Positions 1,949-32,535 of a stretch of DNA of 64,000 bases are shown one piece after another. The stretch lies in assembly GCF_055900595.2 (NCBI RefSeq), contig NZ_CM148325.1. One strand, 5' to 3'. Each line of letters opens with the position of its first letter. Within the stretch, counting starts at the first letter, position 1. The notes under the pieces were generated by a model that was not told where the DNA came from, ran no database searches, and saw nothing but the letters and a program-made list of their open reading frames with translations. The position numbers and the translations under genes are program-made.

Positions 1949-4600
1949 ATGACAGCCTTTCGTGCCGCATTTAAGGCATATCGTATGCATCATGTGTTAC
2001 TACTGCCTCGCTTTGCACGGCTTACCTTTGCCCTTGGCTTAGCTACAGCGATTTTTCCCGTAGAAGCAGAGTATTATTTTAATCCACGGTTTTTAAGCAA
2101 TGATCTTGCTGAGTCTGTTGATTTATCTGCCTTTGCTAAGGGACGCGAGGCACCACCTGGTACATATCGGGTCGATATTTATTTGAACGACGAATTTATG
2201 ACCACTCGGGATGTTACTTTTGTTGCAGATGATAATAACGCAGATCTCACCCCATGTCTGAGTACAGACCTTCTTGTCAGTCTTGGCATAAAAAAATCAG
2301 CGTTATTAGCCAATAAGGGCCATTTGGCAGGAAAAAATGTGCCGGATAACAACGCATGTACACCACTTCAGGATCGTTTGGCCGACGCATCTACTGATTT
2401 TGATGTTGGTCAGCAACATCTGTCGCTCTCCGTTCCACAGATTTATGTCGGTAGAATGGCCCGTGGTTATGTCTCTCCTGACCTGTGGGAAGAAGGAATA
2501 AACGCAGGCCTACTGAACTATAGTTTTAATGGTAATTCTATCAACAATCGTAGTAACCATAACGCCAGCAAAACCAACTATGCATATCTGAATTTGCAGA
2601 GTGGCATAAACATTGGCAGCTGGCGACTACGTGATAACTCAACGTGGAGTTATAACAGTGGGAGTAACAACCCATCTGACAGCAATAAATGGCAACATAT
2701 CAATACGTCTGCTGAACGTGACATTATTCCCTTACGCTCACGGTTAACGGTGGGTGATAGTTATACCGATGGCGATATTTTTGAAAGTGTGAACTTTCGT
2801 GGCCTTAAAATAAACTCAACGGAAGCGATGTTGCCCGATAGCCAACATGGTTTTGCTCCGGTGATTCATGGTATAGCCCGTGGCACAGCCCAAGTCAGTG
2901 TTAAACAGAACGGATACGATGTTTATCAGACTACGGTCCCTCCCGGCCCGTTTACTATTGATGATATTAACTCTGCGGCTAATGGCGGTGATCTGCAAGT
3001 TACGATAAAAGAGGCAGACGGCAGTATTCAGACTTTATATGTCCCTTATTCATCTGTCCCGGTTCTCCAACGTGTTGGTTATACGCGTTATGCACTTGCC
3101 TTGGGAGAATATCGTAGTGGAAATAACCTGCAAAGCTCCCCAAAATTCATTCAGGGCAGCGTAATGCATGGTCTGGAGGGAAACTGGACACCTTATGGCG
3201 GGATGCAAATTGCAGAAGATTATCAAGCTTTCAACGTGGGTATTGGTAAAGATCTTGGCCTTTTAGGTGCCTTTTCTGTCGATATCACGCAAGCCAATAC
3301 GACACTTGCGGATGATACTCGTCACAGCGGACAATCGGTAAAATCTGTTTACAGTAAATCTTTCTATCAGACGGGAACGAATATCCAGGTCGCAGGATAT
3401 CGATATTCTACGCAAGGATTTTATAACTTATCTGACAGTGCATACAGTCGAATGAGTGGTTACACCGTCAAGCCTCCGACCGGAGACACCAATGAACAGA
3501 TACAATTTATTGATTATTTTAATCTGTACTATAGTAAGCGTGGTCAGGAACAAATAAGTATTTCTCAGCAGCTTGGAAATTACGGTACGACCTTTTTCAG
3601 TGCCAGTCGCCAAAGTTACTGGAACACGTCACGCAGCGATCAGCAAATATCATTCGGGTTAAATGTACCGTTTGGCGATATTACGACTTCGCTGAATTAC
3701 AGCTATTCCAGTAATATATGGCAAAACGATCGGGATCATTTACTCGCTTTTACACTTAATGTTCCCTTCAGTCATTGGATGCGTACAGACAGTCAGTCGG
3801 CATTTCGTAATTCAAACGCTAGTTATAGCATGTCAAACGATTTGAAAGGCGGTATGACCAATCTATCTGGGGTTTATGGCACACTGCTGCCGGATAATAA
3901 CCTGAATTATAGTGTTCAGGTCGGTAATACCCGCGGAGGTAATGCATCATCTGGCACCAGTGGTTACAGTTCTCTTAATTATCGAGGGGCTTACGGTAAT
4001 ACTAATGTCGGTTACAGTCGTAATGGAGATAGCAACCAGTTTTACTACGGAATGAGTGGTGGAATTATTGCTCATGCTGATGGTGTCACCTTTGGACAGC
4101 CGATGGGTGACACTATGGTTCTGGTTAAGGCTCCTGGCGCGGAGAATGTTAAAATAGAGAACCAGACAGGAATACATACAGACTGGCGTGGCTATGCAAT
4201 ATTACCATTTGCGACAGAATATAGAGAAAATCGTGTCGCTCTTAACGCTAATTCCCTTGCCGATAATGTTGAACTGGATGAAACCGTGGTTACGGTCATC
4301 CCTACTCATGGTGCTATTGCCAGAGCAACATTTAATGCACAAATCGGCGGTAAAGTATTAATGACTCTGAAATACGGCAATAAACCAGTTCCATTCGGTG
4401 CAATTGTGACTCACGGTGACAATAACAATGGCAGCATTGTTGCTGAAAATGGTCAGGTCTATCTGACAGGACTTCCACAATCAGGAAAATTACAGGTTTC
4501 ATGGGGCAACAATGCAAACGCTAAATGTATTGTTAATTACAAGCTTCCTGAAGTCTCTCCTGGGAACTTACTGAGTCAGCAAACAGCAGTCTGTCGCTAA
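1949..4600 (+). CDS. ydeT: Fimbrial outer-membrane usher (FimD/PapC family), full length
   Basis: Uninterrupted 883 aa ORF of typical usher length; position matches ydeT, which I recall as truncated in K-12. Confidence 0.85.
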   Translation: MTAFRAAFKAYRMHHVLLLPRFARLTFALGLATAIFPVEAEYYFNPRFLSNDLAESVDLSAFAKGREAPPGTYRVDIYLNDEFMTTRDVTFVADDNNADLTPCLSTDLLVSLGIKKSALLANKGHLAGKNVPDNNACTPLQDRLADASTDFDVGQQHLSLSVPQIYVGRMARGYVSPDLWEEGINAGLLNYSFNGNSINNRSNHNASKTNYAYLNLQSGINIGSWRLRDNSTWSYNSGSNNPSDSNKWQHINTSAERDIIPLRSRLTVGDSYTDGDIFESVNFRGLKINSTEAMLPDSQHGFAPVIHGIARGTAQVSVKQNGYDVYQTTVPPGPFTIDDINSAANGGDLQVTIKEADGSIQTLYVPYSSVPVLQRVGYTRYALALGEYRSGNNLQSSPKFIQGSVMHGLEGNWTPYGGMQIAEDYQAFNVGIGKDLGLLGAFSVDITQANTTLADDTRHSGQSVKSVYSKSFYQTGTNIQVAGYRYSTQGFYNLSDSAYSRMSGYTVKPPTGDTNEQIQFIDYFNLYYSKRGQEQISISQQLGNYGTTFFSASRQSYWNTSRSDQQISFGLNVPFGDITTSLNYSYSSNIWQNDRDHLLAFTLNVPFSHWMRTDSQSAFRNSNASYSMSNDLKGGMTNLSGVYGTLLPDNNLNYSVQVGNTRGGNASSGTSGYSSLNYRGAYGNTNVGYSRNGDSNQFYYGMSGGIIAHADGVTFGQPMGDTMVLVKAPGAENVKIENQTGIHTDWRGYAILPFATEYRENRVALNANSLADNVELDETVVTVIPTHGAIARATFNAQIGGKVLMTLKYGNKPVPFGAIVTHGDNNNGSIVAENGQVYLTGLPQSGKLQVSWGNNANAKCIVNYKLPEVSPGNLLSQQTAVCR

Positions 4601-27732: not shown

Positions 27733-30132
27733 ATGAAGCTAACCGATGCGGATAATGCCGCCGATGGCATTTTTTTCCCCGCCCTTGAGCAAAATATGAT
27801 GGGCGCGGTGTTAATTAACGAAAATGATGAAGTGATGTTTTTCAACCCCGCCGCAGAGAAGCTCTGGGGATACAAACGTGAAGAAGTCATTGGCAATAAC
27901 ATTGATATGCTGATTCCGCGGGATTTGCGTCCTGCGCATCCTGAATATATCCGTCACAACCGTGAAGGCGGTAAAGCGCGCGTCGAGGGGATGAGTCGGG
28001 AGCTGCAGCTGGAGAAAAAAGACGGCAGTAAAATCTGGACCCGTTTTGCGCTATCGAAAGTGAGCGCCGAGGGTAAAATTTATTACCTGGCGCTGGTACG
28101 GGATGCCAGCGTAGAAATGGCGCAAAAAGAACAGACCCGACAATTGATTATTGCTGTTGACCATCTCGACCGACCGGTGATTGTCCTCGATCCGGAACGC
28201 CATATTGTGCAGTGCAATCGCGCATTTACCGAAATGTTTGGTTACTGCATTAGCGAAGCTAGCGGTATGCAGCCCGATACACTCCTGAACATTCCAGAAT
28301 TCCCTGCTGATAACCGCATTCGTTTACAACAGTTGCTATGGAAAACCGCCCGCGATCAGGACGAATTTCTGCTGTTGACGCGCACCGGTGAAAAAATCTG
28401 GATTAAAGCCTCTATCAGCCCGGTCTATGATGTGCTCGCGCATCTGCAGAACCTGGTAATGACTTTCTCGGATATCACCGAAGAACGGCAAATCCGTCAG
28501 CTTGAAGGCAATATTCTCGCCGCCATGTGCAGCAGCCCGCCATTTCATGAAATGGGGGAAATCATTTGTCGTAACATCGAATCTGTTCTCAACGAATCGC
28601 ATGTTTCGCTGTTCGCGCTTCGCAACGGGATGCCGATACACTGGGCGTCATCTTCGCACGGTACAGAAGTTCAAAATGCGCAAAGCTGGTCAGCGACCAT
28701 TCGTCAGCGTGATGGCGCACCTGCGGGGATCCTGCAAATTAAAACCTCGTCAGGAGCAGAAACCAGCGCCTTTATCGAACGCGTGGCAGATATCAGCCAG
28801 CATATGGCCGCGCTGGCGCTGGAACAGGAAAAAAGCCGTCAGCATATTGAACAACTCATCCAATTTGATCCGATGACCGGTCTGCCAAATCGCAATAACC
28901 TGCACAATTACCTCGATGACCTGGTCGACAAAGCCGTCTCTCCGGTGGTCTATCTCATCGGTGTTGACCATATTCAGGATGTGATTGATAGCCTTGGCTA
29001 TGCGTGGGCCGATCAGGCATTGCTGGAAGTGGTCAATCGCTTTCGTGAAAAACTCAAACCCGATCAGTATCTCTGTCGTATCGAAGGTACGCAGTTTGTC
29101 CTCGTGAGCCTGGAAAACGACGTCAGTAACATTACCCAAATCGCCGATGAGCTACGGAATGTGGTCAGCAAGCCGATAATGATTGACGATAAACCATTCC
29201 CGCTCACCTTGAGCATTGGCATCAGCTACGACGTGGGTAAAAACCGCGATTACCTGCTCTCCACTGCCCATAACGCGATGGATTATATTCGCAAGAATGG
29301 CGGTAACGGCTGGCAGTTCTTCAGCCCGGTGATGAACGAAATGGTGAAAGAACGGTTGATATTAGGCGCAGCGCTGAAAGAAGCGATTAGCAATAACCAA
29401 CTGAAACTGGTTTACCAGCCACAAATCTTCGCAGAAACGGGTGAACTGTATGGTATCGAAGCCCTTGCTCGCTGGCACGATCCTCTGCATGGTCATGTGC
29501 CCCCTTCACGGTTTATTCCTCTCGCAGAAGAGATTGGCGAAATCGAAAATATTGGGCGCTGGGTCATCGCGGAAGCTTGCCGTCAGTTAGCAGAATGGCG
29601 TAGCCAGAATATTCATATTCCAGCGTTATCCGTTAACTTGTCTGCGCTGCACTTCCGCAGTAATCAGCTGCCTAATCAGGTGTCTGATGCAATGCAAGTC
29701 TGGGGCATTGACGGCCACCAGCTAACAGTGGAAATCACCGAAAGCATGATGATGGAACACGATACGGAAATTTTTAAGCGCATTCAGATCCTGCGTGATA
29801 TGGGCGTGGGTTTATCGGTAGATGATTTTGGCACGGGCTTTTCCGGATTATCCCGCTTAGTCAGTCTTCCGGTAACGGAAATCAAAATTGACAAAAGTTT
29901 TGTCGATCGTTGTCTGACGGAAAAACGCATCCTTGCCTTACTTGAAGCCATTACCAGCATTGGGCAAAGCCTCAATTTAACCGTCGTGGCGGAAGGCGTC
30001 GAAACCAAAGAGCAATTTGAGATGCTACGCAAGATCCACTGTCGCGTTATTCAGGGATATTTCTTTTCTCGCCCCCTGCCCGCCGAAGAAATTCCAGGCT
30101 GGATGAGTAGCGTGTTACCGCTGAAAATCTGA
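27733..30132 (+). CDS. dosP: Heme-PAS c-di-GMP phosphodiesterase
   Basis: ORF 27709-30132; start at ATG 27733 (MKLTDADNAADGIFFPALEQN…). PAS domains, degenerate GGDEF and an EAL domain; 24 nt after the dosC stop. Confidence 0.9.
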   Translation: MKLTDADNAADGIFFPALEQNMMGAVLINENDEVMFFNPAAEKLWGYKREEVIGNNIDMLIPRDLRPAHPEYIRHNREGGKARVEGMSRELQLEKKDGSKIWTRFALSKVSAEGKIYYLALVRDASVEMAQKEQTRQLIIAVDHLDRPVIVLDPERHIVQCNRAFTEMFGYCISEASGMQPDTLLNIPEFPADNRIRLQQLLWKTARDQDEFLLLTRTGEKIWIKASISPVYDVLAHLQNLVMTFSDITEERQIRQLEGNILAAMCSSPPFHEMGEIICRNIESVLNESHVSLFALRNGMPIHWASSSHGTEVQNAQSWSATIRQRDGAPAGILQIKTSSGAETSAFIERVADISQHMAALALEQEKSRQHIEQLIQFDPMTGLPNRNNLHNYLDDLVDKAVSPVVYLIGVDHIQDVIDSLGYAWADQALLEVVNRFREKLKPDQYLCRIEGTQFVLVSLENDVSNITQIADELRNVVSKPIMIDDKPFPLTLSIGISYDVGKNRDYLLSTAHNAMDYIRKNGGNGWQFFSPVMNEMVKERLILGAALKEAISNNQLKLVYQPQIFAETGELYGIEALARWHDPLHGHVPPSRFIPLAEEIGEIENIGRWVIAEACRQLAEWRSQNIHIPALSVNLSALHFRSNQLPNQVSDAMQVWGIDGHQLTVEITESMMMEHDTEIFKRIQILRDMGVGLSVDDFGTGFSGLSRLVSLPVTEIKIDKSFVDRCLTEKRILALLEAITSIGQSLNLTVVAEGVETKEQFEMLRKIHCRVIQGYFFSRPLPAEEIPGWMSSVLPLKI

Positions 30133-30145
30133 CAAATCCCTCTCG

Positions 30146-30165
30146 CCCGCACTCGCGGGTTTTCA
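30146..30165 (+). terminator. Rho-independent terminator after dosP
   Basis: CCCGC-actc-GCGGG followed by TTTTCATTT. Confidence 0.55.
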
Positions 30166-30241
30166 TTTAACGTGACACTGTCACTTAAATACTGTGATTT
30201 CAGCTACGATTCCGGGAGATTCCTTCCTTAACTTCCCCTCT

Positions 30242-30268
30242 TGCACCAAAACTGCACTACGCTGCACA
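30242..30268 (+). promoter_or_regulatory. Phased TGCAC repeats, possible NtrC enhancer sites
   Basis: TGCACC, TGCACT and TGCACA at roughly 10-11 bp spacing, about 70-100 bp upstream of the sigma54-like promoter; resemble NtrC half-sites but not a full consensus. Confidence 0.3.
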
Positions 30269-30329
30269 AATGTTGATCAAAAGTTAAAAAATATAACTTT
30301 AAGCCAGCATTCTGGCGCTTATCCCGGCA

Positions 30330-30346
30330 TGGCATGAGATCTGCAT
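30330..30346 (+). promoter_or_regulatory. Candidate sigma54 (-24/-12) promoter for the ddp operon
   Basis: TGGCATG-agat-CTGCAT has GG and GC 12 nt apart, matching TGGCACG-N4-TTGCW; predicted transcription start about 30 nt before the ddpX ATG. Confidence 0.5.
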
Positions 30347-30389
30347 AAGCGGAAAGCGCAGCAATTTTTGTCTTATACAGGAACCGTTT

Positions 30390-30971
30390 ATGTCGGATAC
30401 CATCGAACTGGTTGATTTAGCCGTGATCTTCCCTGATCTGGAGATCGAATTGAAATACGCCTGCGCTGATAACATCACGGGTAAAGCTATTTATCAGCAA
30501 GCGCGTTGTCTGTTACACAAGGATGCGATTACCGCGCTGGCGAAAAGTATCAGTATCGCCCAGCTGTCAGGCTTACAACTGGTGATTTACGATGCGTATC
30601 GCCCACAACAAGCACAGGCGATGTTGTGGCAAACCTGCCCAGACCCGCAATATGTTGTTGATGTGACGGTCGGTTCTAATCACAGCCGTGGCACCGCGAT
30701 CGACCTGACGCTTCGTGATGAGCACGGGAACATCCTCGATATGGGCGCAGAGTTCGATGAAATGCACGAACGTTCCCATGCTTACCATCCTTCCGTCCCG
30801 CCCGCCGCTCAGCGCAATCGGCTGTTGCTGAATGCGATTATGACTGGCGGTGGCTTTGTCGGTATCCCGAGCGAATGGTGGCACTTCGAATTACCCCAGG
30901 CAGCAAGTTACCCACTACTCGCTGATCAATTCACCTGTTTTATATCCCCTGGCACACAGCACGCCAGTTAA
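30390..30971 (+). CDS. ddpX: D-Ala-D-Ala dipeptidase (VanX-like)
   Basis: 193 aa ORF with zinc-peptidase motifs (…SNHSRGTAIDLTL…, …EWWHFEL…). Confidence 0.9.
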   Translation: MSDTIELVDLAVIFPDLEIELKYACADNITGKAIYQQARCLLHKDAITALAKSISIAQLSGLQLVIYDAYRPQQAQAMLWQTCPDPQYVVDVTVGSNHSRGTAIDLTLRDEHGNILDMGAEFDEMHERSHAYHPSVPPAAQRNRLLLNAIMTGGGFVGIPSEWWHFELPQAASYPLLADQFTCFISPGTQHAS

Positions 30972-30984
30972 TCAGGAAACTGTC

Positions 30985-32535
30985 ATGAAGAGATCGATTT
31001 CGTTTCGTCCTACATTGCTCGCGATCGTCCTTGCCACAACAATGCCGGTTGCGCACGCCGCCGTACCGAAAGATATGCTGGTGATCGGTAAAGCTGCCGA
31101 CCCACAAACCCTCGACCCGGCGGTAACAATTGATAATAACGACTGGACAGTGACCTACCCGTCTTATCAGCGACTGGTTCAGTACAAAACGGACGGTGAT
31201 AAAGGCTCAACAGACGTTGAAGGCGATCTGGCGAGTAGCTGGAAAGCGTCTGACGATCAAAAAGAGTGGACGTTCACCCTGAAGGACAATGCTAAATTTG
31301 CCGATGGCACACCCGTCACTGCCGAAGCAGTAAAACTCTCTTTTGAGCGGTTACTAAAAATCGGTCAGGGGCCAGCAGAAGCATTTCCCAAAGATTTAAA
31401 GATTGATGCTCCCGACGAACATACGGTGAGGTTTACCCTTAGCCAGCCATTCGCACCGTTCCTCTACACGCTGGCGAATGACGGTGCATCCATTATCAAT
31501 CCGGCGGTCTTAAAAGAACATGCGGCCGATGATGCCCGTGGTTTCCTCGCGCAAAATACCGCTGGCTCCGGACCGTTTATGCTGAAAAGCTGGCAAAAAG
31601 GTCAGCAATTAGTTCTGGTGCCAAATCCGCATTACCCCGGCAATAAACCGAACTTCAAACGGGTATCGGTAAAAATTATCGGTGAAAGTGCCTCCCGTCG
31701 CCTGCAGCTCTCCCGTGGCGACATTGATATTGCCGATGCGCTGCCGGTGGATCAACTCAACGCACTGAAGCAGGAAAACAAAGTCAAAGTGGCAGAGTAT
31801 CCGTCACTGCGCGTCACCTATCTGTATCTCAATAACAGCAAAGCGCCACTTAATCAGGCGGATCTGCGTCGGGCCATTTCCTGGTCTACCGATTATCAGG
31901 GTATGGTTAACGGCATTCTGAGTGGTAACGGAAAACAAATGCGCGGCCCGATTCCGGAAGGCATGTGGGGATACGATGCGACGGCAATGCAATACAACCA
32001 TGACGAAACGAAAGCCAAAGCCGAATGGGATAAAGTGACGAGCAAACCCACCAGCCTGACGTTTCTCTACTCCGATAACGACCCGAACTGGGAACCTATT
32101 GCTCTGGCAACACAATCCAGCCTCAACAAGCTGGGCATCAATGTGAAGCTGGAAAAGCTGGCGAACGCCACCATGCGCGACAGAGTAGGTAAAGGTGATT
32201 ACGACATCGCGATTGGCAACTGGAGTCCGGATTTTGCCGACCCGTATATGTTTATGAATTACTGGTTTGAGTCCGACAAAAAAGGTCTGCCGGGTAACCG
32301 CTCGTTCTATGAAAACAGTGAGGTCGATAAGCTACTGCGCAATGCGCTAGCGACCACCGACCAGACGCAGCGTACCCGGGACTACCAGCAGGCACAGAAA
32401 ATCGTCATTGATGACGCTGCTTATGTGTACCTGTTCCAGAAAAACTACCAACTGGCGATGAACAAAGAGGTGAAAGGCTTTGTGTTCAATCCCATGCTGG
32501 AACAGATCTTCAATATCAATACCATGAGTAAATAA
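30985..32535 (+). CDS. ddpA: Periplasmic D,D-dipeptide-binding protein
   Basis: ORF 30850-32535; start at ATG 30985 gives signal peptide MKRSISFRPTLLAIVLATTMPVAHA; family-5 solute-binding fold. Confidence 0.9.
   Translation: MKRSISFRPTLLAIVLATTMPVAHAAVPKDMLVIGKAADPQTLDPAVTIDNNDWTVTYPSYQRLVQYKTDGDKGSTDVEGDLASSWKASDDQKEWTFTLKDNAKFADGTPVTAEAVKLSFERLLKIGQGPAEAFPKDLKIDAPDEHTVRFTLSQPFAPFLYTLANDGASIINPAVLKEHAADDARGFLAQNTAGSGPFMLKSWQKGQQLVLVPNPHYPGNKPNFKRVSVKIIGESASRRLQLSRGDIDIADALPVDQLNALKQENKVKVAEYPSLRVTYLYLNNSKAPLNQADLRRAISWSTDYQGMVNGILSGNGKQMRGPIPEGMWGYDATAMQYNHDETKAKAEWDKVTSKPTSLTFLYSDNDPNWEPIALATQSSLNKLGINVKLEKLANATMRDRVGKGDYDIAIGNWSPDFADPYMFMNYWFESDKKGLPGNRSFYENSEVDKLLRNALATTDQTQRTRDYQQAQKIVIDDAAYVYLFQKNYQLAMNKEVKGFVFNPMLEQIFNINTMSK

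Follow-up and report, generated by a model that had tools for sequence, protein, structure and literature searches.

A sigma-54 promoter under NtrC control upstream of Escherichia coli ddpX and a candidate enhancer of phased TGCAC repeats

The intergenic region between dosP and ddpX in the Escherichia coli sequence studied here carries a feature best explained, with a probability of about 0.85 for the explanation as a whole, as ddpXp, the sigma-54 promoter of the ddpXABCDF operon that is activated by phosphorylated NtrC under nitrogen limitation. Its identity as a sigma-54/NtrC promoter is close to certain. From the sequence, it is probable that a block of three TGCAC repeats further upstream is the place where NtrC binds. 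The literature and RegulonDB already describe the promoter together with its sigma factor, its activator and the signal that induces it, and the placement of the enhancer at the level of individual bases is, as far as the literature we searched shows, the only unpublished element.

The dosP-ddpX intergenic region and the ddpX promoter

The window (the whole stretch of E. coli DNA that was analysed, 64 kb in length, to which all positions refer) has the gene order dosC-dosP-ddpXABCDF, with dosC, dosP, ddpX and ddpA all on the + strand in the list of open reading frames. The dosP stop codon ends at 30132, and the 257 bp that separate it from ddpX, the first gene of ddpXABCDF, span 30133-30389 and are limited on the upstream side by the dosCP terminator. 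The 801 bases around the feature are matched with 95-99.9% identity in 5,395 of 5,426 complete E. coli genomes, and the flanking genes in the matching genomes are dosP and ddpX according to the RefSeq annotation. Between 30133 and 30389 the window differs from K-12 MG1655 at a single base, position 30138, so that published K-12 experiments apply directly. The features of the region are listed below, with distances measured from the predicted transcription start.

30142..30169, + strand: intrinsic terminator of dosCP (GC stem and T-run), with the terminator-like sequence GCCCGCACTCGCGGGT followed by TTTCATTTAA
30242..30248, + strand: TGCAC repeat 1 (TGCACCA), a perfect match to the NtrC left half-site, about -114
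30253..30259, + strand: TGCAC repeat 2 (TGCACTA), about -103; alternatively the degenerate right arm of the 17-mer that starts at repeat 1
30263..30279, + strand: TGCAC repeat 3 (TGCACAA) in the 17-mer TGCACAAATGTTGATCA; the repeat starts at about -93 and the 17-mer is centred at about -85
30271..30300, no strand assigned: A/T-rich spacer from the repeats to the promoter, including TGTTGATCAAAAGTTAA; read from the sequence and the alignment with L036 (see below)
30303..30319, no strand assigned: dyad GCCAGCATTCTGGCGCT just upstream of the -24 element, centre about -45; a weak NtrC-like match
30329..30345, + strand: sigma-54 (-24/-12) promoter ATGGCATGAGATCTGCA, top matrix score in the window and identical to ChIP-seq site OS16
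30356, + strand: predicted transcription start, 34 nt before the ATG, which puts GC at -13/-12 and GG at -25/-24
30379-30382: ribosome-binding site AGGA of ddpX
30390..30971, + strand: ddpX coding sequence, D-alanyl-D-alanine dipeptidase, 193 aa (list of open reading frames and RefSeq annotation of matching genomes)

The promoter string TGGCATGAGATCTGCAT occupies 30330-30346, with GG at 30331-32 and GC at 30343-44, 10 bases apart as in the canonical -24/-12 arrangement. The motif precedes the ddpX ATG (30390) by 60 to 45 bp, is on the + strand and in non-coding DNA, and TGGCATGAGATCTGCA departs from the consensus TGGCAC-N5-TTGCW at two positions while keeping the correct GG/GC spacing. Plain consensus counting was dropped as uninformative, since TGGCACGNNNNTTGCW with at most two mismatches has 10 matches in the window compared with 12.8 expected, which is no enrichment. 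For this reason we turned to a matrix from ChIP-defined sites, built, with ddpX left out, on the remaining 41 ChIP-seq sites classed as "intergenic sense" in Table 1 of Bonocora et al. The 17-mer ATGGCATGAGATCTGCA scores 15.8 bits, the best sigma-54 score on either strand of the window and inside the range of the training sites (9.1-21.5 bits, median 16.3). About 0.58 sites per 64 kb are expected by chance at 15.8 bits, so that the motif on its own would be suggestive evidence of a promoter, and the question is decided by the location and the published experiments rather than by the motif alone. The second-best match in the window, ATGGGACGCATTTTGCA at 42634-42650 on the - strand (13.8 bits), apparently falls within overlapping open reading frames.

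The predicted start near 30356 was placed by the geometry of the motif and by Table 1 of PMC4591121, which gives ddpX a "distance 34"; our literature search found no experimental mapping of the ddpX start site. A simple scan of the dosP-ddpX intergenic region detected no promoter of the sigma-70 or sigma-S type, and an Rfam scan of 29500-31000 gave no relevant match.

Published experiments on this promoter are numerous. The sigma-54 ChIP-seq site OS16 upstream of ddpX is the identical 17-mer, occupied 10-fold above threshold, with a start predicted 34 nt before the gene, and it is the single ChIP-seq motif reported for ddpX (Bonocora 2015, PMC4591121). Earlier, Zhao 2010 printed ggcaTGGCATGAGATCTGCATAagcg at -60 to -43 of ddpX and listed the gene as rpoN-dependent by microarray, among those responding to both overproduction and deletion of sigma-54 (PMC2831329), and a RegulonDB listing of sigma-54 promoters in a 2011 paper includes ddpX. 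On the side of the activator, an NtrC ChIP-seq peak was reported at ddpXABCDF in nitrogen-starved cells by Brown 2014, who also cite earlier expression data that identified the operon as an NtrC target (PMC4066584). The 80-bp window of this peak maps to approximately 30309-30389, over the promoter and not over the TGCAC repeats; the same offset is seen for other NtrC targets in the table of PMC4066584, so that resolution is limiting.

Genomic SELEX (gSELEX) likewise recovered the ddpX site, and gel shifts revealed complexes of NtrC, of RpoN-holoenzyme and of both together on a 410-bp probe (Shimada 2021, PMC8743547). Placed by its primers, the probe corresponds to 30059-30468 in the window and covers the whole intergenic region. 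In the same study nitrogen depletion raised ddpX mRNA 104.5-fold and ddpF mRNA 2.2-fold by RT-qPCR, the authors concluded that both RpoN and NtrC are required, and they counted ddpX among the small number of RpoN promoters in RegulonDB that have experimental confirmation (PMC8743547). The reading of this DNA made earlier from the sequence alone (the sequence-only reading) had placed a -24/-12 promoter 45-60 bp before the ddpX ATG and had noted its fit with induction of ddp by nitrogen limitation. The former is borne out in spacing and position, the site being OS16 of PMC4591121 and printed in PMC2831329, and the latter agrees with the 104-fold response of ddpX (PMC8743547) and the NtrC peak (PMC4066584).

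Effects of sigma-S (rpoS) and of cAMP (cya) on ddpX have also been reported, the latter from a cya deletion (PMC4512719), so ddpXp need not be the sole promoter of ddpX. The rpoS effect could not be placed, given that the scan found no promoter of the sigma-70 or sigma-S type. The cya-deletion effect hints at CRP (PMC4512719). A perfect inverted repeat, GTGACA-C-TGTCAC, is located at 30172-30184, downstream of the dosP terminator and upstream of the ddp regulatory block, and is followed by TGTGA at 30193-30197; by eye, both are poor matches to the CRP dyad.

TGCAC repeats and NtrC-like sites

The three TGCAC repeats that the sequence-only reading had described upstream of the promoter at near-helical spacing are indeed present, starting at 30242, 30253 and 30263, which corresponds to steps of 11 and 10 bp at 88 to 67 bp upstream of TGGCAT. 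They form the only cluster of three TGCAC on the same strand within 21 bp in the window, where approximately 0.007-0.01 such clusters per 64 kb would be expected, or approximately 2e-4 if the 10/11-bp phasing is required. The pentamer itself is rarer than expected in the window, with 91 occurrences compared to about 158 in Markov shuffles. The triple is clearly non-random.

Comparisons with NtrC sites used the published 17-bp inverted repeat TGCACCAnnnTGGTGCA as consensus and a matrix of seven strong K-12 sites, which score 17.5-21.5 bits. The upstream regions of 12 other NtrC-linked sigma-54 promoters of MG1655 were set on a common coordinate frame, in which the classic glnAp2 sites come out at -140 and -108. 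In this frame the ddpX repeats at -114, -103 and -93 fall in the usual range of NtrC enhancers, about 80-150 bp upstream. Each of them reads TGCACnA, that is, the left arm of the NtrC consensus through its seventh base, and by the NtrC matrix the three half-sites belong to the highest-scoring 0.005-0.08% of 7-mers in the window (11.6 bits and top 0.005% for repeat 1, 9.3 bits for repeat 2).

The complete 17-mers are much poorer. Those starting from repeats 1, 2 and 3 agree with 9, 9 and 10 of the 14 consensus positions and score 8.1, -0.1 and 8.5 bits, respectively. The repeats are direct and not inverted, so no good NtrC dyad forms, and the ddpX upstream region contains no full dyad, its best match (10/14, 8.5 bits) comparing with 17.5-21.5 bits for the strong sites. 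This best match is TGCACAAATGTTGATCA, which ranks 15th among 63,984 positions; about 0.09 chance matches at 10/14 are expected per 260 bp. There is no overlap between the 17-mers at 30242-30258 and 30263-30279, which are centred at about -106 and -85, 21 bp or two helical turns apart. Several other NtrC-dependent promoters (gltI, yeaG, argT, patA and potF) likewise lack a match of at least 10/14, so the weak consensus match at ddpX is not disqualifying. The dyad GCCAGCATTCTGGCGCT, closer to the promoter, is the second-best match in the intergenic region (8.4 bits, 9 of 14 consensus positions), about as high-scoring as the repeat-based 17-mers, and has one variable position among Escherichia, 30310.

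The view that the repeats are as expected for NtrC thus holds for the TGCACnA half-sites and for the enhancer distance, and it does not hold for their arrangement as direct repeats with no dyad. Matrix scoring, which the sequence-only reading had itself proposed, gives its promoter 15.8 bits, the top of the window, and the 17-mers that start at the repeats at best 8.5 bits. We consider the repeats as an NtrC enhancer to be a plausible inference from the sequence. We found no NtrC footprint at ddpX in the published literature and no open-access text in which the repeats are printed. A natural C-to-G change at the equivalent of 30252, just 5' of repeat 2, occurs in E. coli SCPM-O-B-8794 and creates a perfect inverted repeat, TGCAC-N5-GTGCA, with arms two bases closer than in the NtrC dyad.

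Conservation of the region

Conservation within the genus was assessed in an alignment of 10 intergenic sequences, comprising the window, K-12, six genomes chosen across the identity range, the GTDB E. coli representative and Escherichia sp. E1V33. Of the alignment columns, 31% are variable in 30133-30235, compared with about 9% between 30236 and the ATG. None of the 10 sequences departs from the others in the sigma-54 17-mer or in any of the three TGCAC, and the substitutions in the block fall at 30272 and at the positions immediately 5' of repeats 2 and 3 (30252 and 30262). Among the database records, the 55-mer at 30236-30290 that contains the repeat block is 100% identical in 3,952 of 4,228, compared with 3,209 of 4,271 for a 55-mer over the promoter and 3,838 of 4,726 for one in the upstream spacer, a contrast that is only mildly informative. 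The inverted repeat GTGACA-C-TGTCAC is also invariant in 10 of 10 Escherichia sequences, with variable flanks.

The ddp promoter region and ddpX are held by roughly 4,211-4,270 of the 5,426 complete E. coli genomes, and about 22% are without them. In the one such genome examined, similarity to the window ends near 30211, osmC directly follows dosP, dosC is a pseudogene remnant, and the whole ddp operon is absent together with the TGCAC block. The position at which similarity ends indicates loss of the block along with the operon in that genome, rather than its retention beside dosP.

Cross-genus footprinting covered 80 loci with ddpX homologues, of which a single one, L036, was informative. 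A sigma-54 site is absent at almost all non-Escherichia homologues, for example in Citrobacter, Enterobacter, Serratia and Pantoea (loci L003-L035 and others, e.g. L016, 2134-3573), and most of these homologues are not the first gene of an operon. In Enterobacter cloacae ddpX follows a co-directional open reading frame by 12 bp, so that its upstream DNA is coding and not comparable for footprinting. Judging by these loci, an arrangement in which ddpX comes first in its operon and has a sigma-54 promoter of its own seems almost restricted to Escherichia. Sigma-54-like matches in L043, L047 and L049 were set aside, as they lie 139-158 bp upstream, lack NtrC-like sites and are not homologous.

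Locus L036, from a metagenome-assembled genome of the Enterobacterales, encodes a DdpX that shares 67% identity with the query, and 39 bp before its ddpX ATG there is a sigma-54 site of 15.5 bits. When the intergenic regions of E. coli and L036 are aligned locally, the best alignment runs from CACCAAAA to CGCTGCACAnnTGTTGAT (30244-30277 in the window), a score reached by one of 500 shuffles. Repeat 1 is kept in part (CACCAAAA) and repeat 3 is kept (CGCTGCACAnnTGTTGAT), repeat 2 is not, and the L036 counterparts of the 17-mers score 3.8 and -2.4 bits with the NtrC matrix. A metagenome scan for the L036 form of the block, GCTGCACATNTGTTGAT, returned 120 loci, apparently by chance, with L155 as the only notable context. 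This contig carries a glnB-glnA pair with sites at 4386-4402 and 4505-4521, where TGCACATTTGTTGATCA, which shares 15 of 17 positions with the E. coli 17-mer, precedes by 105 bp a sigma-54 site of 17.0 bits before glnB. The context is a mild hint that the E. coli 17-mer may be of a type that serves as an NtrC-class site.

The spacer between the repeats and the promoter is rich in A and T (22 of the 25 bases at 30276-30300). Within it, TGTTGATCAAAAGTTAA (30271-30287) is kept in L036 as TGTTGATTTTTTGTTAA (2869-2885), so that TGTTGA-N5-(A/T)GTTAA is common to both, with different bases between the two hexamers. By eye, TGTTGATCAAAAGTTAA resembles ArcA direct repeats and an imperfect IHF site. The spacer may represent a bend, or an IHF-type or ArcA-type site. 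A GATC (Dam) site is also present in TGTTGATCAAAAGTTAA, as part of the palindrome TTGATCAA.

Activation of ddpX and alternative roles of the repeats

In K-12, one base different in this region, RNA polymerase with sigma-54 forms a closed complex on ATGGCATGAGATCTGCA and NtrC binds the intergenic fragment (PMC4591121, PMC8743547). We propose that the enhancer would be the conserved block 30242-30279 with its three same-strand TGCACnA half-sites. The block is best read as two weak 17-bp NtrC sites at about -106 and -85, with the former using repeat 2 as its poor right arm. The good half-sites would anchor NtrC dimers, which may oligomerise along a single helical face, the A/T-rich segment 30271-30300 may aid a short loop to the promoter, and ATP hydrolysis would then open the complex for transcription from near 30356.

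A variant of this scheme would dispense with full dyads altogether. The three TGCACnA half-sites could constitute a non-canonical NtrC enhancer, each binding one dimer of a hexamer, or NtrC may share them, as a composite element, with another regulator that recognizes direct repeats. We consider this unlikely; a composite element, if true, would add a further signal to the nitrogen control of D-Ala-D-Ala scavenging.

It is improbable that the repeats belong to a different regulator entirely, with NtrC binding elsewhere, for example at GCCAGCATTCTGGCGCT (30303-30319), or acting from solution. Winged-helix response regulators typically recognize tandem repeats with a step of 10-11 bp, such as TTCAC-N6-TTCAC, the "cre tag" of CreB, or the TGTTAA-type repeats spaced by 11 bp that ArcA binds. 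The repeats are direct and give poor full-dyad NtrC scores, TGCAC-N6-TGCAC is one base per repeat away from the cre tag, TGTTGAnnnnn(A/T)GTTAA is kept in L036, the dyad at 30303 scores as well as the repeat-based 17-mers, and ddpX also responds to rpoS and cya, all of which would suit another regulator. However, all three repeats fit the NtrC half-site to position 7, beyond the TGCAC itself, and they lie at the usual distance of an NtrC enhancer. Our literature searches found nothing specific that ties ddpX to binding of ArcA, IHF or CreB.

Another reading, that repeats 1 and 2 form a second, weak sigma-54 site, CTTGCACCAAAACTGCA at 30240-30256, is very improbable. With 12.8 bits this site is the fifth best in the window, and at -24 it has TG for GG, as does the weak ChIP-verified potF site TATGCACGTTTATTGCA; potF and ygfT are the ChIP-verified weak sites of the xTGCAC form (PMC4591121), and a second site would fit the multiple holoenzyme bands reported in gel shifts (PMC8743547). 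On the other hand, one G of the -24 GG is missing, repeat 3 and the 10-bp step are left unexplained, the L036 counterpart CACCACCAAAATGGGTA has no -12 GC and the site is therefore not conserved, and ChIP-seq reported a single motif for ddpX (PMC4591121). It is scarcely credible that the repeats merely reflect chance or history and play no part in regulation, for although within-species diversity is low everywhere, which makes the invariance in 10 sequences weak evidence, and the upstream-spacer 55-mer is also mostly identical, only about 0.007 such clusters are expected per 64 kb, variability falls sharply exactly at 30236, and the block is the best-conserved stretch in the comparison with L036.

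Under the preferred reading, in which the TGCAC block is the NtrC enhancer, the region can be compared with known promoters. The window has the same promoter as the K-12 entry ddpXp in RegulonDB and EcoCyc, with the same 17-mer, the same dependence on NtrC and RpoN and no promoter difference. The region shares with glnAp2 a -24/-12 promoter and, about 85-140 bp upstream, NtrC sites aligned along a single helical face, and glnAp2 has single TGCAC/GTGCA pentamers at -85 and -73. The low-affinity sites of glnAp2 have one good half-site each. Unlike ddpX, where no match exceeds 10/14 (8.5 bits) and the half-sites all have the same orientation, glnAp2 has two strong dyads (-140 and -108; 12-13 of 14 positions, 19.9-21.3 bits). 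At glnHp2 the NtrC 17-mers at -134, -121 and -108 are closely packed and overlapping, with a 13-bp step, and IHF assists looping; the A/T-rich spacer of ddpX occupies the place equivalent to this looping region. The glnH sites are true dyads (11-13 of 14), whereas at ddpX the step is 10-11 bp and only the left arms match.

A functional parallel is astCp, the promoter of astCADBE, also a nitrogen-scavenging operon with RpoN/NtrC and RpoS inputs as at ddpX, and the ddp and ast genes co-vary as one expression component. The NtrC-like dyads of ast are located much further upstream, at -233 and -253, and unlike at the sigma-S-controlled astCp, a simple scan found no sigma-S or sigma-70 promoter at ddpX.

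These results matter little beyond confirmation, the promoter and its regulation being already published; they do show that a genuine sigma-54/NtrC promoter could be recovered from raw sequence by the sequence-only reading. If NtrC uses three direct half-sites at ddpX instead of dyads, this would be a modest addition to what is known of how enhancer-binding proteins assemble on weak sites, and it might help explain the NtrC-dependent promoters without dyads, namely gltI, yeaG, argT, patA and potF.
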